Shown: one piece after another, positions 12,067 through 33,805 of the stretch
How the letters are laid out: each line of letters opens with the position of its first letter
Position numbering within the stretch: the stretch's first letter is position 1
DNA from: Bacillales bacterium UBA7581
GTDB taxonomy: Bacteria > Bacillota_I > Bacilli_A > RFN20 > CAG-826
Direction of reading: 5' to 3'
Assembly: GCA_002477825.1 (NCBI GenBank)
Contig: DLKT01000014.1
Span: 1,825-65,824, forward strand
DNA: 64,000 nt
Translations under genes and position numbers: made by a program
The notes under the pieces: generated by a model
Told to the model about the DNA's origin: nothing
Databases searched by the model: none
The model's input: the letters and a program-made list of their open reading frames with translations, nothing else

Positions 12067-12984
12067 TTATCCTTTTTTATGCGCTCTTGGATGCGCGTTA
12101 AAATAGGTCGTTTGCATCTTCTCCATGCTTACGTGTGTATAGATTTGGGTGGTTGATAAAGAAGCGTGTCCTAAAAGTTCTTGAATGACTCTTAAATCTG
12201 CGCCATTATCTAATAAATGCGTAGCAAAAGTATGCCGCATTTTATGCGGGTAAAGTGAAAGATACACGCCGGTCTTTCTTTCAATCTCTTTTAAAATAAA
12301 TTCCAATCCCCGGGTAGTTAATGCTTTTCCTTGGTCATTTAAAAAGAAAGTATCCGGTAATGTTTCGTCGTGATTCTTTTTTAATAAAGTCGGGCGTAAT
12401 TCTTTTTGGTAACGGACCATTGCGTCTTTTGCGGTCACGGAAAAAGGAATGATTCTTTCTTTATTCCCTTTACCTACAATGCGTAAACAACGATTTCCAT
12501 AGTCAATATTAAAAATTTCTAAAGTGCAAATTTCAAAAGCCCGCATGCCCGAAGCATACAGTAATTCTAGAATGGCTTGATCACGAATCATCAAATGATC
12601 CGTTCTTAAAGCATTTTGCGCTAATAACTTCTCGACTTCTTCATAATAAAGAAATTCCGGTAATCTTTTATCTACTTTTGGCGAAGTAATCGTAAGAAAA
12701 GGATTCATTTTTACGTACTCGCGGTCCACTAAAAATTTAAAGAAATGGCGTAAAGCGCTCAGTTTTCTTTTAATGGATCTTTTGGAAATCCCATGCATCA
12801 TTTGAATGGTCAAAAAGTCACGAATATCCGTATTTTTTACCTCTAAAATATTTTTATCCATGTCTTCTAAAAATTTTAAATATTCTTCTATATCTCGAAC
12901 ATAAGCATCTTTTGTGTGCGTAGAATAATTTCTTTCTAACAAAAGATAGTCTTGAAAAAGTTTCACTAAATCATTCATGGACAT
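12067..12984 (-). CDS. xerC: Tyrosine site-specific recombinase XerC/CodV type (chromosome dimer resolution)
   Basis: N-terminal SAM-like domain. C-terminal catalytic HKMRHTFATHLL...LLGHASLSTTQIYTHV. Sits after trmFO as in B. subtilis (gid-codV). Confidence 0.85.
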   Translation of the reverse strand: MSMNDLVKLFQDYLLLERNYSTHTKDAYVRDIEEYLKFLEDMDKNILEVKNTDIRDFLTIQMMHGISKRSIKRKLSALRHFFKFLVDREYVKMNPFLTITSPKVDKRLPEFLYYEEVEKLLAQNALRTDHLMIRDQAILELLYASGMRAFEICTLEIFNIDYGNRCLRIVGKGNKERIIPFSVTAKDAMVRYQKELRPTLLKKNHDETLPDTFFLNDQGKALTTRGLEFILKEIERKTGVYLSLYPHKMRHTFATHLLDNGADLRVIQELLGHASLSTTQIYTHVSMEKMQTTYFNAHPRAHKKG

Positions 12985-18847: not shown

Positions 18848-19477
18848 TTAAAAATATTGTTTTTTAATTTTTTTCTTTTTTACACATACTCTTTCGCCAC
18901 TAGATTGGCCAATCTCTTCACAAACGGTATCGACATACCATAACACACCATCAATTTCTTCATAAGGTACTAAACCTAATCCGTGTTCAGAGTCTAATGA
19001 TTTACCCGGATTTCGATTATCACCTAAAACATAATAATAGCCTTTAGGTATGGTTAATTCTTTTCCACAAGCCATGTTATAGGATCCAACGCAAGTTGTT
19101 CTTTTCGTTTGTTCCCATTCCATTTGAGCATCATCGGTTGGAATAAAATTTTGTAATACGATTTTTCCATTAATGGTTATTTCGCCGGTTATATTATCAA
19201 CTGAGACTGTTTCTCCTGGTAAAGCAATAACGCGCTTAATCAAGCGTTCTCCTCTAGCCTTACTATCAAAAATGATGATATCAAACCGTTTGAGATGTTT
19301 TTTTCGATAGGTTGTTCTTATCGTTTTTCCTTCTGATAAATCACCTAATGTAGGTGACATTGAAGTTCCATCAATAATGACTCCACCAGTTAAAAATCGA
19401 AACAAGCAAAAACTAATACTAAAAATAACGACAAGGGCCGTAAAAATATTGAGAATGACTTGTTTTTTCGGTTTCAT
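18848..19477 (-). CDS. lepB: Signal peptidase I (bacterial P-type, LepB/SipS-like)
   Basis: N-terminal TM helix, Ser box DGTSMSPTL, Lys box KRVIALPGE, and GDNRNPGKSLDS. Confidence 0.92.
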   Translation of the reverse strand: MKPKKQVILNIFTALVVIFSISFCLFRFLTGGVIIDGTSMSPTLGDLSEGKTIRTTYRKKHLKRFDIIIFDSKARGERLIKRVIALPGETVSVDNITGEITINGKIVLQNFIPTDDAQMEWEQTKRTTCVGSYNMACGKELTIPKGYYYVLGDNRNPGKSLDSEHGLGLVPYEEIDGVLWYVDTVCEEIGQSSGERVCVKKKKIKKQYF

Positions 19478-22477: not shown

Positions 22478-23599
22478 TTAGTTTTTATCATTGCTATCTA
22501 TTAAACAAAAAGTAACGTCGTTTTTATTCGCTTTGCCTTCAATAATAATTAAATAAATTTTTCCTGTCTTTAAATTTCCAGTATAAAGCTTATCTTCTTC
22601 ATCATACACCAAGAGAGTAAAATCATCAGCACTTGCACCCACAACGTGCGTTTTCCACTCTTTTTCTAAGTTACTAGAGTCATAAGGTGCAACTCTTAAA
22701 AAATTCTTATGATTTGCTTTTAAATTCGTTTTAAAATAATATCTTCCTTTTGATTCATCAAAATTAAACATCTCATATTGATCAAAAGTACAAACATTAC
22801 AAATCCCCATTTTGTCATAGTTTTCATCATGTTCGTGATGCTCAAGCGCAGTAATTGTACCATAAGCAACTTTTCTACCGCCTTCAACGGCGCCTATTTC
22901 CATACCCTTATCTAAAATAAATTGGGTTTTAAGAATAATCGTAACTTCATGTGTTTCTCCTGCCTTAAAGCATTCTAAATCGCTAGGCAAAAGAATCGAT
23001 CCGTAAACATCTGCCGTATAATAAGTAGTGCCAAGAATAACATTAGGATACAATTTAATAATCAAGTGATATTTGGTAAAGAAGGGCGTGTTTCTTCCAC
23101 CTTCGTCCTTAGTTAAGGTAGTTAAATTTACTTTCAATTGGTTATAATATTGTTTCGTTGAAGGTGTAAAGAGTGAATAGCCTTTTTGAATTTGTTTTCC
23201 ATCCACACCTTCAATAGATAATTCAACTTCTTCTCCTTTTGATGCATTTTCATACGCTTTATTATTTTTTTCAATCCCAGTAATAGTTACATTTTTATCT
23301 AAGTTTGAAAGCGTTAAAATATCGCCTGTTTTCACAGAGCCACTATAGATGGTGCCTGAAACAACTGTTTTTCCGCCAGTGGTTGAAAGTACATCACTAA
23401 TTGGCATAAAGAAAGATTTGTCTTCCGTTGGCGCTACTGTCGTTTGCGTTCCTGTTGTTGAAGTAACTATTGTTGGTTCAGTTGTTGATTGTGTTGGATT
23501 ACCACTTGTTGGTTTTTTATTTCCACAGGCGGTTGCTGTTGAAAGTAAGGAAACCAATAATAAAGAAGCGGTTAAAATAGTTTTTATTGTTTTTTTCAT
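22478..23599 (-). CDS. Lipoprotein containing EF-Tu domain II and III homologs without a GTPase domain, plus an unknown C-terminal domain
   Basis: Signal peptide with lipobox (LLSTATA-C25) and a T/S/P-rich linker. Residues about 60-252 are colinear with EF-Tu domains II-III (FFMPISDV, GGKTVVSGT, VKTGD, ITGIE, LTKDEGGRNTPFF, VEGGRKVAYGTIT). Confidence 0.85.
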   Translation of the reverse strand: MKKTIKTILTASLLLVSLLSTATACGNKKPTSGNPTQSTTEPTIVTSTTGTQTTVAPTEDKSFFMPISDVLSTTGGKTVVSGTIYSGSVKTGDILTLSNLDKNVTITGIEKNNKAYENASKGEEVELSIEGVDGKQIQKGYSLFTPSTKQYYNQLKVNLTTLTKDEGGRNTPFFTKYHLIIKLYPNVILGTTYYTADVYGSILLPSDLECFKAGETHEVTIILKTQFILDKGMEIGAVEGGRKVAYGTITALEHHEHDENYDKMGICNVCTFDQYEMFNFDESKGRYYFKTNLKANHKNFLRVAPYDSSNLEKEWKTHVVGASADDFTLLVYDEEDKLYTGNLKTGKIYLIIIEGKANKNDVTFCLIDSNDKN

Positions 23600-23891: not shown

Positions 23892-24122
23892 TTGTTCATG
23901 TTTGATTATCATCAAACTTTGTTCGTCGGTATCGACGTCAGTAAAGATTCTAATCAAGTCTGTTTAATCAACTTTGAAAGAAAAAAATTACTGAATAAGT
24001 CCTTCAAAAACAATTTAGAAGGCGCTACTGAGATGAAAACAACGATCATCTCTTATTTATTTAAACACGATTTTGCTTTATCAATTCGCTTTTTAATATC
24101 AAAAATAGAAGACCCTTACTAA
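23892..24122 (+). pseudogene. IS110-family transposase, N-terminal stub of about 55-75 codons
   Basis: LFVGIDVSKDSNQVCLIN...NNLEGATEM matches the DEDD/RuvC-like N-terminus of IS110 transposases. The ORF stops after 76 codons, whereas an intact protein is about 350-400 aa. It is the only plus-strand ORF in the island. Confidence 0.7.
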
Positions 24123-24140
24123 TTCTCATTAGCTTGGGTC
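24100..24140 (-). terminator. Possible terminator of the SipW/TasA-like operon
   Basis: Minus strand reads AGACCC-(20-nt loop)-GGGTCT, then TCTATTTTT, 18 nt after the stop of the 762-aa gene. The long loop makes it weak. Confidence 0.35.
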
Positions 24141-24157
24141 TACGAATCATCAATTTC

Positions 24158-26446
24158 TTATTGTTTATTTATTGTGCAATTTGTATACGAACAATTATTA
24201 AATGTTCCTTCACCAGTCCCTTTGATTTCAGAAGCATCGCTACCAAGTGAAGCAGTAATTGTCGCATTCGTTAGCGTGCAGCCTTCAACAGTGACGTTAG
24301 TTTTAAGTAACCCCACAATTCCTCCAACATTGTTTTCAGCTGTAACATTAATATTCGATATACAATTCTTTATATACACTATAGATGTTGTTTCATTTTC
24401 TCCAGTATGACCAATCATACCTCCAACATATTGTGTTCCTTTTACATAACTTTCTTCTTCTACAGCAATGATACAATTCTTTAAAATATCGGTGGAAGTA
24501 ACATTATAGTTATTTAATACATAATTAGTCGCTTCAATTTTGCCAGCAAAAGCACCAACATTATTCTTTCCATTCACCATGACTTTTCCTTTTAAAGTCA
24601 CATTTTCTAATACACATCCTCCAATTAAATCATAGGAATTACGTTTTCCTTTGAGGCTATAATTTCCGCCACCAAAGACTACACCAACATTATCATTTCC
24701 TGAAACAAAAGCGTTTTCGATAGTTAAGTTTTCCACTTTCATAAATTTATATAGTTGTTGACGGTTATAAGTTGTCATTTTTCCACCTGTAGCAAAAAGA
24801 CCTTTACCATATTCACCAGATGTATCAATGTCATCCGTTGCATTCATTAGCAAATTAGAAATCGTATGTCCATTACCATTAAAGGTACCAACAAAGCCAT
24901 AAATTGGAGTAAACGGTTCATTTTTTAAATCAACATCACATTCTAATTTAACATTACTTAAATATAAACCTTCTCCACTATTTACATAATCACGGAAATA
25001 TTGAAGACCAATTTCTTCATCAATTATGCCACTGTCGCTTGTATAATAGAATCCCTCTCCAAAACGGGAAAGATATATATTGGATTGTGTAAAACTTCCG
25101 ATATAGTTATTTGTTTGGTTCTCGCAAGTTATGGCATAAACCCATGCACCTTTTGATTCATCATATTTCATGAAATCATAAAGGGAACCTTTAATGGTCG
25201 CCGTATTCCCTTTTTCTTGATAACCTAGAATAGAAGCACATCCCCCACTAGAAGTAGAAGTTATTTCTACTATGGATGTATTATCGAAATCTCCTGCGAT
25301 TTCTCTAATTTCCAATTCATCACCATCATAATATCCACAAACACCACCAGCATAAGTAGATGGCGTAACATGAATGTCACTTACAAATGTGCTGTCAATT
25401 GTCGTCGTACCTGTCGCTTTTCCAACAATACCACCACCATATTCCACATTACGAATAGTAACATTCTCAAGACGAATGTTTTCGCTCTTAACCGAAATAT
25501 TCTCTCTCACATTGCCAAATAAAGCACCACCAGCACTTCCGCTTCCTGTACCTTCAAATGTAGCGTTGCGAATTGTTAAATTCTTTACATTGACAGAATT
25601 TGAAACATTTCCAAATAAGCCAACATATTGATCTGCCATCTTGAAGTTTGAAATTGAATAATTGTTTCCATCAAAAGTTCCAGCAAAATTATTTAAAGGA
25701 AGAATGGAAGCTCCTTCTAAGTCAACATTTCCGCCTAAATGAACAACTCTTCCAGCATACGTCTTTCCTTCATTCACATTTTTAACAAATGCATTAAAAT
25801 CTTCTTTTGAACATATATACATTTCATTAGGTTCATTTACTGTATCTGCATTTCCTTGTACAGCCTCAACACGATAAACGATTTTACACGAAGTTCCCTC
25901 ATATTGGTTACTATCCGCACTCTCAGCAAATTCTACACTAACTGGAAATGTTACCGCTGTTTTATTTGTGCCTTCGATTGGATTGAGTGTTTTCCATTCA
26001 GAATTAATTTTCCAAGTAAACTCTCCATCAACGCCTAAGAAAGTTTCTGTTCCTAACGTAATGGTTAATGCTGAAAATAAACCTGTATCATCTGCTTTGG
26101 TGACAACAGTACGATATTTTACAGGGACATCACTATTATTTTGAATATTGATGTTAAATTTTGCACCATCACCTGGCATAAAACGGGCTAAAGACAAGCT
26201 ACCATCACTTAAAAGAGAAATCTCTCCTCCTAAAGTGTGATTATCGCCTAACTCATATCCTTGGTTTAATTGTTTTGTTTGAATACTCGTTTGATCAACA
26301 ACAGCAGTCACATCAACTTTACCTGATTTTACGACAATATTCACTTCGTCTTCAGAAGTAAATAAAGCATAAGTTCCGCCAGCAATAAGACTTGCACTCA
26401 AGCAAATTCCTAATATTGCAGAAGCAATTACATTACTCTTTTTCAT
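24158..26446 (-). CDS. Secreted adhesin-like protein: SipW-type signal peptide, TasA/camelysin-like beta-sandwich, and two GLUG-motif beta-helix modules
   Basis: Start set at the ATG at 26446 (GGGGGA SD). Signal LIAGGTYALFTSED. The TasA-like module ends at QYEGTSCKIVYRVEAVQGN. It is followed by FAGTFDGNNYSISN...YVGLFGN and FVGTFNGNGHTISN...GKGLFATGG, with repeated NVGG(I/V)VG-type GLUG motifs. Confidence 0.8.
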   Translation of the reverse strand: MKKSNVIASAILGICLSASLIAGGTYALFTSEDEVNIVVKSGKVDVTAVVDQTSIQTKQLNQGYELGDNHTLGGEISLLSDGSLSLARFMPGDGAKFNINIQNNSDVPVKYRTVVTKADDTGLFSALTITLGTETFLGVDGEFTWKINSEWKTLNPIEGTNKTAVTFPVSVEFAESADSNQYEGTSCKIVYRVEAVQGNADTVNEPNEMYICSKEDFNAFVKNVNEGKTYAGRVVHLGGNVDLEGASILPLNNFAGTFDGNNYSISNFKMADQYVGLFGNVSNSVNVKNLTIRNATFEGTGSGSAGGALFGNVRENISVKSENIRLENVTIRNVEYGGGIVGKATGTTTIDSTFVSDIHVTPSTYAGGVCGYYDGDELEIREIAGDFDNTSIVEITSTSSGGCASILGYQEKGNTATIKGSLYDFMKYDESKGAWVYAITCENQTNNYIGSFTQSNIYLSRFGEGFYYTSDSGIIDEEIGLQYFRDYVNSGEGLYLSNVKLECDVDLKNEPFTPIYGFVGTFNGNGHTISNLLMNATDDIDTSGEYGKGLFATGGKMTTYNRQQLYKFMKVENLTIENAFVSGNDNVGVVFGGGNYSLKGKRNSYDLIGGCVLENVTLKGKVMVNGKNNVGAFAGKIEATNYVLNNYNVTSTDILKNCIIAVEEESYVKGTQYVGGMIGHTGENETTSIVYIKNCISNINVTAENNVGGIVGLLKTNVTVEGCTLTNATITASLGSDASEIKGTGEGTFNNCSYTNCTINKQ

Positions 26447-26462
26447 TGCTTTTCCCCCACTT

Positions 26463-27134
26463 TTATCTTGCACTTGTTGCTTGAACGGCTTCAACATATA
26501 AATCAATATTTGTTTTTAATCCTTTGGCTTCGTTATTATCGAAGTGAACGTCATTTAACCGATCATCAACAAATTCAATTTTCACTTTAAACACCGATTG
26601 AGCACTTTCATCGTCGTTCACTAAAACTTTGCCACTTGCAATTTCATAATTCTTATTTAGATCTGATAAAAATTCACTGGTTTCTGTTCCATTTTGATTT
26701 GTAATGGTAACTTTGATTTGTTCAGCAAGTTTCTTATCGGTGCCTTCGCCAAGTTTTAAATACACATTGTAATCAAATGCAACAGTCCCCCCATTATTAG
26801 CGATGCACATAGTGGCCGTATAACTAGAAGTTGGAACGATGAGTTCTTCATTATCCATTCCAAACACGTTTTCAGTTGTTCCTTTTGTAAAATCGACTGG
26901 TGCATCGGATGAACTTTGTACAGTTTTTTCTTTTACAATACCATCGTTCTTATCTAATCGATTTTGTACGAGTTCTTTTCTTACAAGTTTAATCTTTAAA
27001 TCTCCTGCTTGTAAATGATTAGTTAATGTAACATCACTGCTCCAAAGAGCATAGGTTCCACCAGCTAATAAAGCGACGCTAAGCATGAGCATCATGCTCG
27101 CCGTCATTAATGTTTTTGTTTTTCTTTTTTCCAT
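26463..27134 (-). CDS. TasA/CalY (camelysin, M73-like) family secreted protein
   Basis: Start at the ATG at 27134 (AAGGGGA SD). SipW-type signal peptide LLAGGTYALWSSDVTLTNHLQAGDLKIKL. C-terminal NNEAKGLKTNIDLYVEAVQ is typical of the family. Confidence 0.82.
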   Translation of the reverse strand: MEKRKTKTLMTASMMLMLSVALLAGGTYALWSSDVTLTNHLQAGDLKIKLVRKELVQNRLDKNDGIVKEKTVQSSSDAPVDFTKGTTENVFGMDNEELIVPTSSYTATMCIANNGGTVAFDYNVYLKLGEGTDKKLAEQIKVTITNQNGTETSEFLSDLNKNYEIASGKVLVNDDESAQSVFKVKIEFVDDRLNDVHFDNNEAKGLKTNIDLYVEAVQATSAR

Positions 27135-27184
27135 TTTAAAAATCCCCTTTCTTTTTATATAAATCATCCATTTGAAACAACAAA

Positions 27185-27832
27185 CTATTTTGCTGCCATT
27201 GATGCTTTATCCTTTGTTAATTCATGTCGATGACTATTTCGACGAATTCTTGCTTTTTCTTTTTTATATGCTTTCTCTTCTTCAATTGCATCCACTGCAA
27301 TTCGAATACTGTCCTTCACCGCAGAGAGCGATTCCCCATCTGTAACCTTTATCACTGCTGGTGCTTGTTTTACTACAACTTTGTTATCATTTACATAGTT
27401 CTTAAATTGAAGATTCGGTATCATTAGTTCACAAACAACGACGCCACGTCGTATCTTTAATCGCACCAAGCTTCTTTTACCAAGTCTAAAATCCTCATAC
27501 TGTGCTTTTTTAAAGTGCTTAATGTTATTAATCATTCCAGCAAATTCAACGATTTCATCATAATATTCTTTGTATTTTGATGAAAGAGCATTATATTTTT
27601 CTAACAAGGTTTCATTTCCTGTAGTAAACTTAACATTCTCGTCATTTTGTTCGACAATCTCATTTTCCACATTCGCAACTGTCGACGCTTCTAGCGTTAC
27701 TTGAGCATCTTCTTTCACTTCTTGCATTTTATGTTCATGCTTTTCTTCTATAATGTCACAACAGACAACTACTACACAAAAAAGACTAAACGCTAAGACT
27801 AATGCGACAAATATGATTAATAAAGTTTGCAT
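27185..27832 (-). CDS. Single-pass membrane protein of unknown function inside the SipW operon
   Basis: 215-aa ORF. It has an N-terminal hydrophobic helix ending in CC, an acidic linker, a globular segment and a basic tail. No family recognised. Confidence 0.6.
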   Translation of the reverse strand: MQTLLIIFVALVLAFSLFCVVVVCCDIIEEKHEHKMQEVKEDAQVTLEASTVANVENEIVEQNDENVKFTTGNETLLEKYNALSSKYKEYYDEIVEFAGMINNIKHFKKAQYEDFRLGKRSLVRLKIRRGVVVCELMIPNLQFKNYVNDNKVVVKQAPAVIKVTDGESLSAVKDSIRIAVDAIEEEKAYKKEKARIRRNSHRHELTKDKASMAAK

Positions 27833-27879
27833 TTGCGACTACCTCCTTTCTTAAATAATATTTTACCTCAAGGCACATG

Positions 27880-28713
27880 CTATTTTTTTTCTTCATCTTT
27901 GCTCAACGACGAGCCTTCTTGAGGAAGATCGGAAATAGGCGGTGCCGTAGATTTATTAGATTTTTGTTGAAGTTCATCAAGTTGACGCCTTAATTCTTTA
28001 ATTTCATTAGCCTGGCTTTCCCAAGCAATGGCTTCTTTTTCTTTCTTTTCTTTATTTAATACGCCAATGATACGAATAATCTGAAAACCAATTAGAGTAA
28101 GACAAGGAATGATAATAATACAAATAATTCCTATAGGACTTCTTAATGCATAAACAATTGAACCAACGAATCGGCTTTGACCAGTTACTCTTCCAATAAT
28201 ATAATTAGGACTATTCTCATCGCTGGTATCAATAATTTGTTGCCCCACACCACTAGAATCTAATTTATTGTCTCCTTCTAACGTTATAATATAGCCCCCT
28301 TGATTTTTTTCTTCTATCTTTACAACGCGGTGAGTAATTGTAACTTGTTTTTGATAAACATATTTAAATGTTAGAACATCTCCAATTCGGAGTGTTTCTA
28401 GCCACTTTTGCTGTTTAGCCTCTTCTTTGGGCATAACTTCGATAAACACACAAGATTTTACAGGAATACTTTTGATTTTATATTCAGACACATCTGTCTG
28501 ATCACATTTTTCCATGGAGCTTGATTGTACAAAACGAAGTTGATACCCAAATATTGTCGCGGCACCATCACTATCTTTTTTTGCCATTACACTTATTGAG
28601 AGAATAAAAATTGCGAAAATCAAAATTAAAAATACAATAATATTCCCCATAAAACTTAGCGCTTTTTTTATTGGTCTCTTTTTTTCATCTGATGGTAATA
28701 CTTTGCTTTCCAT
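27880..28713 (-). CDS. sipW: Signal peptidase I, SipW (ER/archaeal) type, with a long charged C-terminal tail
   Basis: TM1, Ser box VQSSSME, GDVLTF, His box VTITHRVV, EGDNK, RSPIG plus TM2, matching B. subtilis SipW boxes (SGSMEP, GDVITF, VTHRIV, KGDNN, SQPIG). An extra tail of about 58 aa follows. Confidence 0.88.
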   Translation of the reverse strand: MESKVLPSDEKKRPIKKALSFMGNIIVFLILIFAIFILSISVMAKKDSDGAATIFGYQLRFVQSSSMEKCDQTDVSEYKIKSIPVKSCVFIEVMPKEEAKQQKWLETLRIGDVLTFKYVYQKQVTITHRVVKIEEKNQGGYIITLEGDNKLDSSGVGQQIIDTSDENSPNYIIGRVTGQSRFVGSIVYALRSPIGIICIIIIPCLTLIGFQIIRIIGVLNKEKKEKEAIAWESQANEIKELRRQLDELQQKSNKSTAPPISDLPQEGSSLSKDEEKK

Positions 28714-28718
28714 ATTGA

Positions 28719-29219
28719 TTACCTCAATTCCATTGTTTTAGCCAATAAATCAACATAAAAATTTGCTTCAGCACCTTTTGCTTCATTTCCTACGCTTTCT
28801 GGCATTGTATACGTAATTATGATTTGATTTGTTCTCATTCCAAGATTTAATATCTTACTATTGTCGTCTAATAGTTCCTTTAAGGAGTTTTCGATTATGA
28901 CTTGTTTTGTCTCAACTTTTACATTTATATAATTCTTTAATTGATTTTCATCATTATCGCTATCGCGAAAGCTTAGATAAACATTTAAATTCACAATATT
29001 TTTACCATTCAAATGAATCGTATAAGACGTGCTACTTCCCGGATAAATATTTGAAATTTTCGTAGACAAAGTTTGGGTGGTATTTTCCTTTAATGTTACG
29101 CTTACATTCCCAGGCAGTTTATTTTCTTTAGCAATATTAAAATAGACGCCAATTCCAATTAACGCTAATAAAATGCATATCATAGTTAAAACATATTTAA
29201 TTTTCTTATATGCCCCCAT
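28719..29219 (-). CDS. Membrane-anchored TasA/camelysin-fold protein lacking the SipW cleavage motif
   Basis: Start at the ATG at 29219 (GGGGGAG SD 8 nt upstream). TM helix VLTMICILLALIGIGVYF, then IYPGSSTSYTIHLNG and C-terminal GNEAKGAEANFYVDLLA, resembling TasA-family strands. Confidence 0.6.
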   Translation of the reverse strand: MGAYKKIKYVLTMICILLALIGIGVYFNIAKENKLPGNVSVTLKENTTQTLSTKISNIYPGSSTSYTIHLNGKNIVNLNVYLSFRDSDNDENQLKNYINVKVETKQVIIENSLKELLDDNSKILNLGMRTNQIIITYTMPESVGNEAKGAEANFYVDLLAKTMELR

Positions 29220-29348
29220 ATGCTCGTCTCCCCCTATCAAACATTTAAAAATGCTATTAAGCTAATGTCGTATTTCCCAAAAACTTTTGTAAATTTAGAA
29301 ATTTTAATTTAAAAATATTGAAAATAGATTTATTCAATATTGAAAAAT

Positions 29349-29379
29349 ATCATACCCCCCCCCCGTACTTTTTTGTCAA
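29349..29379 (-). promoter_or_regulatory. Sigma-A-type promoter of the SipW/TasA-like operon with a homopolymer in the spacer
   Basis: Minus strand reads TTGACA (29379-29374), then AAAAAGTAC plus G10 (19-nt spacer), then TATGAT (29354-29349). About 125 nt upstream of the first CDS. Confidence 0.75.
29355..29364. repeat. C10/G10 homopolymer tract
   Basis: Counted directly: catacccccc ccccgtac. Conspicuous in an AT-rich genome. Confidence 0.98.
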
Positions 29380-29908: not shown

Positions 29909-31753
29909 TTAATTAGCCAGGCTGTTTTTCTTTAATAAAATGGCCCCCATGAAAAGTAATAAACTAAAGGTTGCAATTACAGCAGTAGAAGCCTTCTGGC
30001 ATCCATTTTTCTTTGAAGGCTTGGAAGTTTCATATTCCTGAATTTCAAAAGGTGCTGTATAATAAACCAATTCCATCGATTCATCTTTAAAGGCTGCAAT
30101 CACTGAATATTTGCCACGTTCCTTTTCTTGATAAGAGAAAATCTGTCCTTCAACTTCTATTGTTCCACCTACATAAGTTGTGGCCGTTAAAGTAACAGCC
30201 AAATCCTTAGTGAAATCTTGGCCTTTTTCTAATTTCATATCATTGCCTTTTATTTCAAAAATTCGGTTGGTAAAATAATCGGCAATATTGTTTGTAATAC
30301 CAATAAGACCATTTTTGATACAGGTGTGCTTCATATTGTAAATATTATCAATCGTCCAATACCAACCAATATAACCTCTATCGCGTAAATATAATTCGTT
30401 AAATTCCTTAGAAAATGCATTAAGCGCCGAATCAATACCCGCATTCAATCTTCCCAATAAAGCAAGGTTTTTATCAAATGTTTTTTCACTTACATTTCCT
30501 AAGTAAGCTGTAGGAATCATTGGAAGATTATTTTTCACTCTTTCTAATGCTGTAGTAGAGAAAGAGATAATTACGATTTGATCATACAATTGATATTGAT
30601 CGAGTTTTTCTTTTAGTAAAGTGGGAAAATTTTCCTTTTCTGTTTTTACTTCTAAAACAAGAATCGTTTGGGTATCTTTTAACGTTTGGAAAATATCATC
30701 AACATTAGGAATTTTTTCGTTTGGCTTATAAACATCTAATTCAAATTTTTCTAATTCTTCGGAGGTGTAATTCTCGAGAGAACCAGTGCCTGATGTAGTA
30801 CGGTCAATCGTTCCATCATGCATAAAATAAATTTTATTATCTTTGGTAACATATGCATCTAATTCGACGTGAGTCGCACCAACTTCCATTGCTTTTTTTG
30901 TTCCACTTACAGAGTTTTCATGAGCTTGTTTAGGTAATCCACGATGACCGACATTAAAGAAAGGGCGGAAAGCCGTACCTTCTTCTAATTGCTCAAATAG
31001 TTCATATATGTGTTCATAGTCTTTTACAATTAATCCATATGTCCCTGTTTGTAAAGCCGAATAAATATCAAAATCTGTTTCTTTATCCAATCTTGTCCAA
31101 ACCGTTTTAAAACGAGCATGAACATATGTGACGTTCTCTTTTGTAGCTAAAGAAGAAGGAAGTACAGCGACTTGTGCTAGATTTTCATTGGTAGGAGCAA
31201 CAACCATTTCATATAAGTTTTTCTCTTCCGATAATTCACTATATTCAACAATACCACGAATTTTGGTATTAGTTTCTCTTATTGTTTTTACATAGGATGG
31301 TGTATTAGAAAGAACCGCCATATCTAGCATATCCAATTGTGTTTTTGAAAATTTCATAAAGGCGTTCATACTATTTTCATCTTGAATGGATAAAATTGGA
31401 ATGATAAAAGGTGTTATCTCGTTATAAACATTGATAAAAGAGTCAATAACATTACCCTCTTTATCTATGATATTTGCATTTTCATCAAAATGTAAGATGA
31501 CGTTAGAAGGCCGCGTATCCGTTGTTACCACTTTATCTAAATCATCTTTAGATTCAACGTCAACAATTAAGGTAGGCAAATTTCTTACTGCCGTCTCATA
31601 TTCAAATGTCTCGATAAGTTCATTATCTGTAATAAGTCCTGTTTCATTTGCATTTTTGTTTTCAGCGTTAGCTTTAACGCTTTTTGAAGTTTGGAAAAAA
31701 TTACAACTTGCAAACAAAAAAGCGCCTATCATCAATAAAGGTATTCTTTTCAT
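29909..31753 (-). CDS. Surface lipoprotein glycerophosphodiester phosphodiesterase, paralog 1
   Basis: Lipobox LFASC. An N-terminal domain of about 250 aa is of unknown family. GDPD core: HRGLPKQAHENS, GATHVELDAYVTKDNKIYFMHDGTIDRTT. C-terminal hydrophobic anchor. Confidence 0.85.
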   Translation of the reverse strand: MKRIPLLMIGAFLFASCNFFQTSKSVKANAENKNANETGLITDNELIETFEYETAVRNLPTLIVDVESKDDLDKVVTTDTRPSNVILHFDENANIIDKEGNVIDSFINVYNEITPFIIPILSIQDENSMNAFMKFSKTQLDMLDMAVLSNTPSYVKTIRETNTKIRGIVEYSELSEEKNLYEMVVAPTNENLAQVAVLPSSLATKENVTYVHARFKTVWTRLDKETDFDIYSALQTGTYGLIVKDYEHIYELFEQLEEGTAFRPFFNVGHRGLPKQAHENSVSGTKKAMEVGATHVELDAYVTKDNKIYFMHDGTIDRTTSGTGSLENYTSEELEKFELDVYKPNEKIPNVDDIFQTLKDTQTILVLEVKTEKENFPTLLKEKLDQYQLYDQIVIISFSTTALERVKNNLPMIPTAYLGNVSEKTFDKNLALLGRLNAGIDSALNAFSKEFNELYLRDRGYIGWYWTIDNIYNMKHTCIKNGLIGITNNIADYFTNRIFEIKGNDMKLEKGQDFTKDLAVTLTATTYVGGTIEVEGQIFSYQEKERGKYSVIAAFKDESMELVYYTAPFEIQEYETSKPSKKNGCQKASTAVIATFSLLLFMGAILLKKNSLAN

Positions 31754-31954: not shown

Positions 31955-33805
31955 TTATTTAGCAAAACTACTTTTCTTTAGTACGATAGCGCCTAAGAAC
32001 ACTAACAAACTAAAGGAAGCAATGACGGCCGTTGAAGCCTTTTGACAACCACTCTTTTTCGGCGGATTCACGATTTCTTCTTCGCCATCTTGAATCTCAA
32101 AAGGTGCGGTATAGTATGTAAGACTTGTTGAATAATCAGTGTAATAAGCAATAACAGAATACTTGCCTTTCTCAATTTCTTGATAGAAATAAATTTGTCC
32201 TACTACTTTTGTCTCTTCACCTTTATATGTTATAGCGGTTAAAGGAACAACCGTATCTTTAGAAAGGGTTTGTCCTTTTCCTAATTGCATATGATTTCCT
32301 TTTAAAGAATAAACTTTATCGCTAAAATAATCTGCGACATTATTGGTAATTCCAACAGCACCACTTTGTGGTCCCATATTTTCAATAGAAGAAACATTAT
32401 CGTAAGTCCAGAACCAACCAATGAAACCTCTATCTCTTAAATAGAGTTCATTAAATCTCGTTGAAAAGGCACCCATAGAAGTATCTACGCCAGCATTCAT
32501 TTGTCCTAATAAAGGTAAAGCTTTCGTAAAATTACTTTGGTTTACACTTCCTAAATATGCAGTTGGTACTTCAGGTAAAACATCTTTCATTTGTTCTAAC
32601 ATTGAGCTTGAGAAAGAGATCACCACGATTTGAGGATAGAAATTATATTCATCCAATTTTTCCTTTAATAAAGTAGTAAAATTTGCTTTGGTCGTTTTAA
32701 TTTCTAAAACCAAAATAGTTGACGTTCCTTGTAATGTTTGAATAATCTCATCAATATTAGGAATTTTTTCATGTGGTTCAAATAAATCAAGTTCATATTT
32801 TTCTAATTCTTCGGATGTATAGTTTTCTAAAGCACCTTCACCATTAGACGTACGCATAATCGTGCCATCATGCATAAAATAAATTTTATTATCTTTAGTA
32901 ACATAAGCATCTAATTCAACATGTGTTGCTCCTACTTCTGTTGCTTTTTTCGTACCACTTATAGAATTTTCATGTGTTTGCTTTGGAAGTCCTCTATGTG
33001 CCACATTAAATGATGGACGGAAAGAACTACCCTCTTTTATTTGCGTGTACATTTCATATACATGCTCATAATCTTTAACAATCAATCCATACGTTCCCGT
33101 TTGAATTGCTGAAAGAATATCTAAATCCGTTTCACCCGTTAATCGTGTCCAAACAGTTTTAAAACGAGCTTGAATGTAAGTGACATTTTCTTTTGTTGCT
33201 ATAGAAGGAGAAAGCACCGCTACATTAGCAAAATGAGCGTTCGTAGGAGCGATAACCGAATGATACATATCTCCATCAGTGATATCGTTATATTCAATAA
33301 TTCCACGTATTTTGTTATTTTCATCCTTAATCCCTTTTATATAGTCAGGTGTGTCGGACATAATTGATAAGTCAAGAATATCCATTTTATTTTTAAAGAA
33401 ATCCACAAATGCAATATAACTGTCTTGATTTTCAATATAAACAATCGGCAAAATCTTTTTATTTAGTTGCGCATAAACATTAACGAAAGAATCAATAACA
33501 TTTCCTTCTTTATCGGTAATATTTTGATCTTTATTCATGTGTAAAATTACATTCGATGGTCGAACTTCTGTACTCGTTACTTTGGTTAATTGTTCTTTTG
33601 ATTCAATATCCACAATTACGGTAGGAAGATTATTCGCGACCGTTCCTTGATAATACGTTGAAGCTAAATTGTTATCGACCACTAATTCTTCGCTTGATGT
33701 TTCATCCGCCAAAGCTCTTTTTTCCATTTTAGGGGATTGAAATAAACATGCACCAATACATAAAAATAAGCTTAATGATAAAAGTTTTCTTCTTTTCATA
33801 TTCAT
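31955..33805 (-). CDS. Surface lipoprotein glycerophosphodiester phosphodiesterase, paralog 2
   Basis: Lipobox CIGAC. Colinear with paralog 1 over its full length (HRGLPKQTHENS, GATHVELDAYVTKDNKIYFMHDGTIMRT). Same C-terminal tail. Confidence 0.85.
   Translation of the reverse strand: MNMKRRKLLSLSLFLCIGACLFQSPKMEKRALADETSSEELVVDNNLASTYYQGTVANNLPTVIVDIESKEQLTKVTSTEVRPSNVILHMNKDQNITDKEGNVIDSFVNVYAQLNKKILPIVYIENQDSYIAFVDFFKNKMDILDLSIMSDTPDYIKGIKDENNKIRGIIEYNDITDGDMYHSVIAPTNAHFANVAVLSPSIATKENVTYIQARFKTVWTRLTGETDLDILSAIQTGTYGLIVKDYEHVYEMYTQIKEGSSFRPSFNVAHRGLPKQTHENSISGTKKATEVGATHVELDAYVTKDNKIYFMHDGTIMRTSNGEGALENYTSEELEKYELDLFEPHEKIPNIDEIIQTLQGTSTILVLEIKTTKANFTTLLKEKLDEYNFYPQIVVISFSSSMLEQMKDVLPEVPTAYLGSVNQSNFTKALPLLGQMNAGVDTSMGAFSTRFNELYLRDRGFIGWFWTYDNVSSIENMGPQSGAVGITNNVADYFSDKVYSLKGNHMQLGKGQTLSKDTVVPLTAITYKGEETKVVGQIYFYQEIEKGKYSVIAYYTDYSTSLTYYTAPFEIQDGEEEIVNPPKKSGCQKASTAVIASFSLLVFLGAIVLKKSSFAK

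Follow-up and report, generated by a model that had tools for sequence, protein, structure and literature searches.

What would a bacterium build with five adjacent genes, one of which encodes a signal peptidase of the SipW type and three of which encode proteins resembling the fibre protein TasA? The question is raised by a locus of Bacillales bacterium UBA7581, where the genes g1 to g5 (products P1 to P5) stand on the minus strand of a 64,000-nucleotide (nt) stretch of contig DLKT01000014.1, hereafter called the window (Table 1). A model that had seen only the letters of this stretch and its open reading frames (ORFs), the sequence-only reading, described a SipW-dependent surface-fibre operon with P1 as membrane-anchored base, P4 as polymerising subunit and P5 as tip adhesin or alternative cargo. 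TasA-type fibres are known mainly as Bacillus biofilm matrix and have lately been extended to C. perfringens and archaea. The core biology, SipW acting with TasA-like subunits, is established, and the mechanistic steps at the present locus are predictions. We favour, with a probability of about 0.6, the reading that the locus is one transcription unit that builds a cell-anchored, SipW-processed fibre of TasA-like subunits displaying a large beta-helix protein, and that its expression is phase-variable.

The TasA-like proteins and their membrane partners

By their profile scores, P4 and P5 are members of the TasA/camelysin family that carry a SipW-type signal, as the sequence-only reading had proposed. 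Both pass the Pfam model of this family (PF12389, Peptidase_M73; gathering threshold 22.5 bits), P4 with 24.0 bits over nearly the full model length and P5 with 30.9 bits over nearly the whole model (residues 7-200). Both also pass the NCBIfam model of SipW-dependent signal peptides (TIGR04088, cutoff 19), with scores of 24.5 and 24.0; P1 and P3 gave no match to it. The signal motifs LLAGGTYALWSS and LIAGGTYALFTSE, which follow the pattern GGT-Y-A-L-(W/F), are the sole two of their kind in a six-frame translation of the window, and they lie in the ORFs of P4 and P5. The P4 family and the N-terminal domain of P5 recognise each other in profile-profile comparison (hhalign, 98.8%, E = 1e-16), and mature P4 and P5 are both acidic (pI 4.6-4.7).

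Past residue ~205, P5 consists of two modules, each of which opens with F-x-G-x-F-(D/N)-G-N and contains G-G-(I/M/V)-x-G motifs. These modules had been taken for a GLUG adhesin. When they were scanned separately with Pfam Glug (PF07581), the first reached E = 0.19 with 12.6 bits (cutoff 20.5), and the second gave no match; the GLUG identity was dropped because the score is below the gathering threshold. The C-terminal part of P5 aligns with Pectate_lyase_5 at E = 2.2, the g5 proteins of relatives have Pfam matches to Beta_helix, Pel9A-like or Pectate_lyase_5, and BLAST aligned the second module weakly with the beta-helix regions in the g5 proteins of three relatives (L009, L010, and L011). The C-terminus of P5 thus appears beta-helix-like, and it is a probable beta-helix cargo or adhesin.

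An invariant asparagine (N39 in P4, N36 in P5) is located 9-10 residues past the predicted SipW cut. In BsaA, the residue N35 takes part in an isopeptide bond between molecules (PMC11580942), and its distance from the signal peptide appears to be similar. No Lys/Glu partners that would complete a BsaA-like isopeptide triad with P4 N39 or P5 N36 are identifiable from sequence, and the outer domain of g1 contains no invariant Lys or Glu.

P1 matched no Pfam or NCBIfam family directly. A profile of its orthologues matched the g4 family (hhalign, 92%, E = 6e-7) and the g5 N-domain family (84%, E = 8e-6), in each case over just residues ~54-161, from the Pro-Gly strand (residue ~54-58) to the C-terminal G-N-E-A-x-G...A strand. 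The protein has a single hydrophobic helix (residues 9-27), and its AlphaFold2 model (19 sequences, pLDDT 77.7) consists of a helix at residues 4-27 followed by a beta-sandwich. When this model was compared with PDB by Foldseek, TasA (5of1/5of2, E 7e-4 to 1.6e-3) stood at the top of the list by query TM-score (0.48-0.50), with CUB and PliG jelly-rolls having better E-values. The claim that profile searches would place all three proteins in the TasA fold is therefore borne out for P4 and P5 through PF12389, and P1 is linked to them via hhalign only. The description of P1 as a protein with a transmembrane anchor, a TasA-like beta-sandwich and no SipW cleavage motif agrees with the hhalign, AlphaFold2, Foldseek and TIGR04088 results.

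The N-terminal part of P1 bears on its role. In the P1 family alignment, no cleavage motif is conserved past the helix. The Pro-Gly motif lies 31 residues from the membrane helix in P1, versus 71 and 62 residues from the predicted cut in P4 and P5; because of this shorter spacing, P1 is predicted to lack the 30-40 N-terminal residues that carry the donor strand in TasA (residues 28-38; PMC9674648) and in BsaA. P1 is, on this evidence, a truncated TasA-domain paralogue whose N-terminal membrane helix is conserved and predicted to stay uncleaved. It was rejected as a TapA homologue, since no NCBIfam model scored over its cutoff, the SipW signal is missing, the membrane helix is kept, and the protein is homologous to the TasA-like domain itself. 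The earlier suggestion of a TapA analog was likewise given up: P1, in which the donor-strand-equivalent region is missing, would more probably serve as terminal acceptor and anchor than supply a strand in the manner of TapA.

P2 was correctly recognised as a signal peptidase of the endoplasmic reticulum (ER)/archaeal type, an assignment that holds for the class, as the curated SipW cutoffs are missed. It matches the SipW model NF046067 with E = 1.8e-16 at 60.2 bits (cutoff 190) and TIGR02228 with E = 8e-10 at 38.8 bits (cutoff 51.85). Because neither cutoff is reached, we regard P2, from its sequence, as a divergent relative and not an equivalog of SipW. P2 aligns with human SEC11A/C over the HR and GDN motifs. 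Its S66, H128, and D148 are invariant among eight family members, giving a catalytic Ser/His/Asp set (SxSM, HR, and GD motifs) instead of a Ser/Lys dyad. Two hydrophobic helices (25-43 and 194-212) were detected, the second of which is followed by a charged tail of ~65 residues. A separate housekeeping lepB had also been pointed out, and ORF 18848-19477 indeed carries Pfam Peptidase_S26.

P3 had been presented as a single-pass membrane protein with no recognisable family. The topology stands, and no named family applies, since P3 matched none in Pfam or NCBIfam and a Pfam scan of 42 family members found none in common. The protein is nevertheless not an orphan: more than 120 homologue clusters were found, all unnamed, and the conserved family counts 451 clusters at 50% identity among 1.84 billion representatives. 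A tRNA_anti-like match on the window P3 (21.1 bits vs 23.5) was dismissed, the rest of the family being without it. P3 is built from a membrane helix, a variable linker rich in Pro, Glu and Ala, a highly conserved domain of ~100 residues with basic character (pI 9.6), and a long basic helix. Its AlphaFold2 model (pLDDT 84.3) found no PDB structure with E < 0.1 in Foldseek; a consistent yet weak likeness to small alpha/beta domains of the YjbR/YdhG type was seen, and that fold was not assigned because of the weakness of the likeness and the E-value.

The connection of P3 with the peptidase comes from natural SipW-P3 fusions in other genomes. In P0142 and P0214, a SipW-type peptidase (NF046067, E = 7e-10 and 5e-13) and a C-terminal membrane helix are followed directly by one or two P3 domains. 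Because the catalytic domain of a signal peptidase acts on the outer membrane face and the P3 domain follows the last helix, the fused P3 domain would be cytoplasmic. Stand-alone P3 proteins have basic residues after their helix, which agrees with this placement. The P3 domain is therefore probably cytoplasmic and coupled to SipW. For a family of 451 clusters, the fusions provide a testable handle, namely a domain on the cytoplasmic side of SipW, an enzyme already suspected of a second, non-catalytic role.

The P3 family was also seen in other settings. At eight loci (L036, L049, L050, L055, L056, L065, L075, and L084), a P3-family gene occurs with no detectable SipW or TasA-like neighbour, and at three of these loci its neighbour codes for a large protein (1008, 859, and 387 amino acids (aa)) that begins with a hydrophobic leader. 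The P3 domain is in addition fused to multi-pass membrane regions in P0275, P0277, P0282, and P0266.

The conserved cassette and its promoters

The window matches contig DJQI01000037.1 of the metagenome-assembled genome GCA_002438695.1. An ORF check reproduced the five head-to-tail ORFs with the start positions and sizes given by the sequence-only reading. The intergenic gaps from P1 to P5 are 5, 47, 50, and 16 nt. Each of the five chosen start codons is preceded by a Shine-Dalgarno-like site, and longer alternative starts lack one. A single terminator-like hairpin follows the P5 stop codon, other such sites found in the scan being weak and inside genes. With these tight gaps, the one terminator and the synteny described below, the five genes behave, as far as the sequence tells, as a single transcription unit spanning about 24101-29379 of the minus strand, in agreement with the five-gene operon originally outlined. 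None of the outcomes that the sequence-only reading had named as refuting it was encountered. If the "atypical composition" ascribed to it meant base composition, that is not the case: no anomaly was detected, the GC content of the operon (0.31-0.36) being inside the range of the rest of the window (0.29-0.40).

Relatives of the cassette were collected in a scan of one genome per GTDB species, which gave 73 loci, all from metagenome-assembled genomes. Almost all of these genomes come from the gut and are assigned to Clostridia, with the labels Christensenellaceae, Oscillospiraceae, Candidatus Scatosoma or Eubacteriales; some of the bins bear names that look mis-assigned. In a hidden Markov model survey of the 73 loci, all five genes are present at 48 of the 73 loci, g2, g3 and g4 together at 13, a partial set (often at contig ends) at 4, and g3 alone at 8. 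The g5 gene is found once at 24 loci, twice at 22, three times at 10 and four times at 1, and a second SipW gene occurs at 16 of 73. In L001 and L008-L011, which were reached via P3 homologues, the order g1-g2-g3-g4-g5 is the same as in the window, and the products are of similar layout (g1 ~160 aa, g2 262-317 aa, g4 ~210 aa, then at least one large g5). According to BLAST, identity to the window proteins is 26-69% for g1, 47-69% for g2, 41-58% for g3, 37-76% for g4, and 35-43% for the N-domain of g5. The most divergent gene is g5, whose C-terminus is variable; even the closest relative, L001, aligns over the first ~360 residues only. The same building block stands here in another arrangement of five genes, conserved at no fewer than 48 species-level loci; these belong to uncultured bacteria, and most of the record titles point to gut samples from animals and humans.

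The homopolymer-containing promoter noticed earlier was found as described, with a run of ten G residues (G10) between TTGACA and TATGAT. The length of the tract sets the spacer between the two hexamers (19 nt with G10, 18 nt with G9, 17 nt with G8), and this is the sole G/C run of at least 7 in the 64-kb window. A 29-nt core, CTTGACAAAAAAGTAC-G10-TAT, is identical in the window, L001 and L085, although the upstream flanks do not align and the proteins of L001 and L085 are only ~69% identical to those of the window. Among seven assemblies of the same species (the window included), six have G10 and one (L006) has G9, a difference for which short-read homopolymer error is possible. G tracts between TTGACA and the -10 hexamer, with different spacer sequences, were detected in L029 (G10, 18-nt spacer), L033 (G8, 15 nt), and L023 (G13), and less clearly in L015. 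In 934 kb of relatives' loci there are 21 G/C runs of at least 8, nearly all within or just before genes of the operon; some are inside g5 genes, and one of these coincides with a broken reading frame. From the placement of the tract, its conservation and the single G9 variant (a possible sequencing artefact), a change in tract length probably switches the operon of the window on or off. The perfect inverted repeat just downstream of the -10 hexamer is a likely operator and may be a repressor site.

G8-G12 tracts inside or just upstream of g5/g4 paralogues (L010 8686, L013 9724, L029 10333 and 11617, L076 10222, and L077 7932) were also recorded. The G9 tract of L010 encodes Gly-Gly-Gly, and that of L029 is followed by TAGTAG and a broken reading frame, which suggests additional, frameshift-type switching of individual cargo genes. 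At an apparently unrelated locus (L086, contig ERZ842401 NODE-5665, 12757-12780), the identical core CTTGACAAAAAAGTAC-G10 is followed by TATAAT and stands directly upstream of a gene for a 176-aa lipoprotein, after which come two further small-protein genes with N-terminal hydrophobic leaders.

A second kind of switch was found in relatives. Upstream regions were surveyed at the 50 species loci with at least 350 nt before g1: 12 have a tyrosine recombinase and inverted repeats, 4 repeats only (some at contig ends), 2 a recombinase only, 3 a poly-G tract, and 29 none of these. Pairs of inverted repeats, 19-32 nt long and separated by 100-320 nt, occur in 16 of the 50 upstream regions versus 7 of 289 control windows, and their arms contain a core such as ACATAAC-N4-GTTATGT. 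The promoter segments that they flank measure 126-266 nt. The segment of L027 aligns to those of L009, L031, and L082 in reverse only (scores 88-91 vs 26-28), with the flanking genes collinear. In the shorter segments, a TTGACA-17-TATAAT-like promoter faces the operon in L016 and L077 and faces away from it in L011, L013, and L037. The window itself has neither an inverted-repeat pair of this kind nor a nearby recombinase, its sole integrase-like ORF (12067-12984) being 16 kb away, so that an invertible promoter was ruled out at this locus.

That two unrelated DNA switches stand before one operon in many species argues strongly, if indirectly, for on/off production of what the operon encodes. 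Homopolymer or repeat tracts in promoter spacers are known from Neisseria opc/porA, Haemophilus hif, and the poly-G tracts of Treponema pallidum tpr, and invertible promoters with a tyrosine recombinase from E. coli fimS and gut invertons. The locus resembles such phase-variable surface-structure promoters in that a homopolymer occupies precisely the spacer of its promoter, with tract lengths that vary across species and perhaps across assemblies; the relatives resemble the invertible ones in that inverted repeats flank a promoter segment beside a tyrosine recombinase and both orientations are seen. A poly-G tract or an invertible promoter before the same operon in different species points to repeated evolution of an on/off switch. 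The product would therefore be under strong fluctuating selection, for example by host immunity or phage, and may shape colonisation. A full-text search that did not cover all journals retrieved no literature in which phase variation, invertible promoters or gut bacteria are connected with SipW/TasA-type operons.

In L008 and L083, where no recombinase is present, a TetR-family gene precedes the operon, and a TTGACA promoter is flanked on its two sides by the palindrome TATAGAAAATTCTATA, present three times (4534-4664 in L008). A repressor may thus take the place of a DNA switch in these loci.

Fibre, surface display or matrix

Under the favoured reading, P4 and P5 would be exported by Sec and cut by P2. 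The N-terminal strand freed by the cut would then enter the beta-sandwich of the following subunit, in the way shown for TasA (PMC9674648) and BsaA (PMC11580942). P4 would form the shaft; P5, with one copy or a few made for each fibre, would carry its beta-helix outward, at the distal end or along the fibre. P1, as a strand acceptor that is neither cleaved nor able to donate in the TasA fashion, would end the chain and fasten it to the membrane; a reversed polarity in which P1 is the starter is also conceivable. P3 would act together with the SipW tail on the cytoplasmic face, possibly in substrate delivery or signalling. Slipped-strand changes of the G tract would alter the -35/-10 spacing and set transcription low or high, an outcome that relatives would reach via an invertible promoter and tyrosine recombinase. 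An anchored truncated subunit together with large adhesin-like fusions suggests a cell-bound appendage rather than a shed matrix.

Several results weigh against this reading. The Pfam scores of P4 and P5 are barely over the threshold (24.0 and 30.9 vs 22.5), searches of PDB sequences with the g4 and g1 profiles retrieved no TasA, and a search with P5 gave neither TasA nor any other meaningful match. The SipW models score P2 under their curated cutoffs, the E-values of Foldseek rank CUB and PliG jelly-rolls ahead of TasA for P1, and the P3 family also occurs outside SipW loci (8 of the 73 species loci). As to the switch, the G9/G10 difference comes from one assembly and short-read assemblies are error-prone in homopolymers, nearly all assemblies have G10 with its 19-nt spacer so that the promoter may simply work with it, and a second promoter-like site (29575-29546, minus strand; TTGACA-18-TAGTAT) stands ~200 nt upstream of the poly-G promoter. 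That site, if active, would leave the switch leaky. Finally, that a fibre forms, that strands are exchanged, which polarity the fibre has and what parts P1, P4 and P5 play in it are all matters of inference.

A bolder version of the favoured reading is tentative and, in our estimate, distinctly less probable than the reading itself. It holds that the cassette specifies a third kind of Gram-positive pilus beside sortase and type IV pili: a phase-variable, donor-strand-linked TasA-like shaft with exchangeable beta-helix g5 adhesins (1-4 copies per locus), which would grow from its base, would be ended and fixed to the membrane by the non-cleavable truncated g1, and would have its export and cleavage organised from the cytoplasm by g3 on the SipW tail. 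If this were true, the cassette would be a functional Gram-positive counterpart of chaperone-usher pili and would give uncultured gut Clostridia a switchable adhesion. Gram-negative chaperone-usher pili, to be taken as an analogy only, share strand complementation, a tip protein with an extra binding domain, an anchoring terminator and common on/off switching. Their proteins are unrelated, however, and the present locus has no chaperone, usher or outer membrane; its extra domain is C-terminal and its strand would be freed by a signal peptidase.

The rival that survives best is surface display in place of a long fibre, which we judge unlikely. The N-domain of P5 would dock its strand into the anchored P1, directly or via one or a few P4 spacers, and the system would mainly tether beta-helix enzymes or adhesins to the cell. 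Such a role would suit the multiplication of g5 (1-4 per locus) with variable C-termini bearing pectate-lyase-like or beta-helix domains, the preservation of the same N-domain by every g5, and the acceptor-type domain of P1 with its lack of a donor region. It would leave unexplained why nearly every locus keeps a separate, strongly conserved, domain-only g4 (37-76% identity), as expected of a shaft subunit, and the homologues TasA and BsaA do polymerise (PMC9674648, PMC7395162).

A released biofilm matrix as in B. subtilis is improbable. In that case P4 and P5 would be shed and polymerise extracellularly, and P1 would be a membrane-bound chaperone or cap that prevents premature polymerisation. 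TasA fibres are largely matrix-associated, an accessory chaperone-like protein, CapP, has been proposed in B. cereus (10.1101/2024.02.27.582368), and a truncated paralogue such as P1 is what a capping factor would be. However, the membrane helix of P1 is conserved and predicted to be uncleaved, and 21 of 50 species have promoter switches of the on/off kind, which typically go with structures exposed on the cell surface and not with matrix goods that are shared.

Spore-associated appendage or coat proteins are very improbable candidates, as solely a historical link, the first description of TasA as spore-associated (PMC9674648), speaks for them, whereas the promoter elements fit the vegetative TTGACA/TATAAT consensus, the adjacent genes include no sporulation genes, and on/off switches are unusual for spore structural genes. 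Chance neighbours or false-positive TasA assignments, which near-threshold Pfam scores and empty PDB sequence searches might suggest, are least credible of all and effectively refuted, because five-gene synteny is conserved in 48 species loci, the three TasA-like families recognise each other profile-profile, and the SipW signal model TIGR04088 is passed twice.

Compared with described systems, the locus has several parts in common with the tapA-sipW-tasA operon of B. subtilis (PMC9674648, PMC10151520). TasA polymerises as its N-terminal strand, freed by SipW, enters the next subunit, and TapA has been proposed to supply the first strand (PMC9674648). Both loci have a dedicated ER-type signal peptidase gene beside its substrates, substrates with a GGT-aromatic-A signal motif and a TasA/camelysin jelly-roll domain, and an accessory protein proposed at the fibre end. 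Unlike the B. subtilis operon, the window locus has no TapA homologue, its accessory P1 being a truncated TasA paralogue with a membrane helix and no donor region; it adds P3 with its predicted cytoplasmic domain and the 762-aa fusion of a TasA domain to a putative beta-helix; its SipW has an insertion and the ~65-residue tail; and its control would lie in a poly-G promoter, whereas B. subtilis uses SinR.

The sipW-bsaA-bsaB-bsaC locus of C. perfringens (PMC7395162, PMC11580942) is likewise clostridial and combines SipW with several TasA-like secreted proteins of differing size. BsaA requires SipW and forms very stable polymers (PMC7395162). In the model for its assembly, a new subunit held in the membrane accepts the strand of the growing oligomer before the SipW cut, which leads to growth at the base (PMC11580942); a non-cleavable P1 would fit as terminator in such a scheme. 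Expression of sipW-bsaABC is bimodal and confined to a subpopulation, which we count as a likeness, although the heterogeneity of BsaA arises via regulation and not from a DNA switch. P4 scored 18.4 bits against the BsaA family model TIGR04090, below its cutoff of 60, the window locus lacks a von Willebrand A protein and a two-component system, and no g1 or g3 equivalents have been described for BsaA loci.

B. cereus (sipW-tasA, calY, and CapP, which is BC1280; 10.1101/2024.02.27.582368) also has two TasA-family subunits. The outline of CapP resembles that of P3, with an N-terminal hydrophobic segment, a domain of ~150 aa and a C-terminus rich in Lys and Glu. P3, however, has no Pfam match, the DUF4047 of CapP included, and CapP is reportedly located outside the cell, whereas the SipW fusions lead us to predict a cytoplasmic P3 domain. 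Donor strands also link the TasA-like jelly-roll subunits of the archaeal bundling pili AbpA/AbpB (PMC9245690), as would be the case here; in these archaea single-pass membrane proteins of unassigned role are encoded nearby, and a minor protein has been proposed to start the fibre and bear adhesive domains. The archaeal loci differ in having no dedicated signal peptidase, AbpB is TapA-like and not TasA-like, and the host domain and gene set are different. Relative to the systems found described, the conserved partners g1 and g3, the SipW-P3 coupling, the multiplied fusions of TasA domains to beta-helices and the recurrent DNA-level on/off switches are new.

Feature positions and neighbouring genes

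The features of the operon and its promoter are listed in Table 1.

Table 1. Positions of the operon, its promoter elements and its terminator in the window.
Feature	Position	Strand	Description
-35 hexamer TTGACA	29374..29379	-	Read directly
Spacer N9 AAAAAGTAC		-	Between -35 and G10; read directly
G10 homopolymer	29355..29364	-	Within the 19-nt spacer; candidate slipped-strand on/off switch
-10 hexamer TATGAT	29349..29354	-	Read directly
Perfect inverted repeat AATATTGAA-N10-TTCAATATT	29314..29341	-	Just downstream of -10; conserved in L001 and L085
P1 (g1)	28719..29219	-	166 aa; membrane-anchored, N-terminally truncated TasA-like beta-sandwich protein (predicted), no SipW signal
P2 (g2)	27880..28713	-	277 aa; divergent SipW/ER-type signal peptidase I (predicted), long charged cytoplasmic tail
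P3 (g3)	27185..27832	-	215 aa; single-pass, unnamed conserved family; basic alpha/beta domain, predicted cytoplasmic and SipW-coupled
P4 (g4)	26463..27134	-	223 aa; TasA/camelysin-like, SipW-type signal; candidate major subunit
P5 (g5), whole	24158..26446	-	762 aa
P5, N-terminal part	25847..26446	-	SipW-type signal and TasA-like domain, residues 1 to ~200
P5, C-terminal part	24158..25846	-	~560 aa; two repeat modules; probable beta-helix cargo or adhesin
Intrinsic-terminator-like hairpin and T run	24101..24141	-	After the P5 stop codon; RNA fold -15.7 kcal/mol, then TCTATTTTT

Directly past the operon terminator, a 76-aa ORF on the plus strand (23892-24122) resembles the N-terminus of an IS110-family transposase (Pfam DEDD_Tnp_IS110, weak) and looks like a remnant. 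Further along, at 22478-23599 on the minus strand, a predicted lipoprotein of 373 aa, whose signal sequence ends in Cys, matches the Pfam domains 2 and 3 of EF-Tu, a combination that is unusual for an exported protein. On the other side of the operon, two paralogous genes in tandem on the minus strand (29909-31753 and 31955-33805) encode glycerophosphodiester phosphodiesterase (GDPD) proteins, which are 614 and 616 aa long. Both GDPD paralogues end with G-C-Q-K-A-S-T-A-V-I-A, a hydrophobic stretch and a basic tail, which may represent an unrecognised C-terminal sorting or anchor signal.

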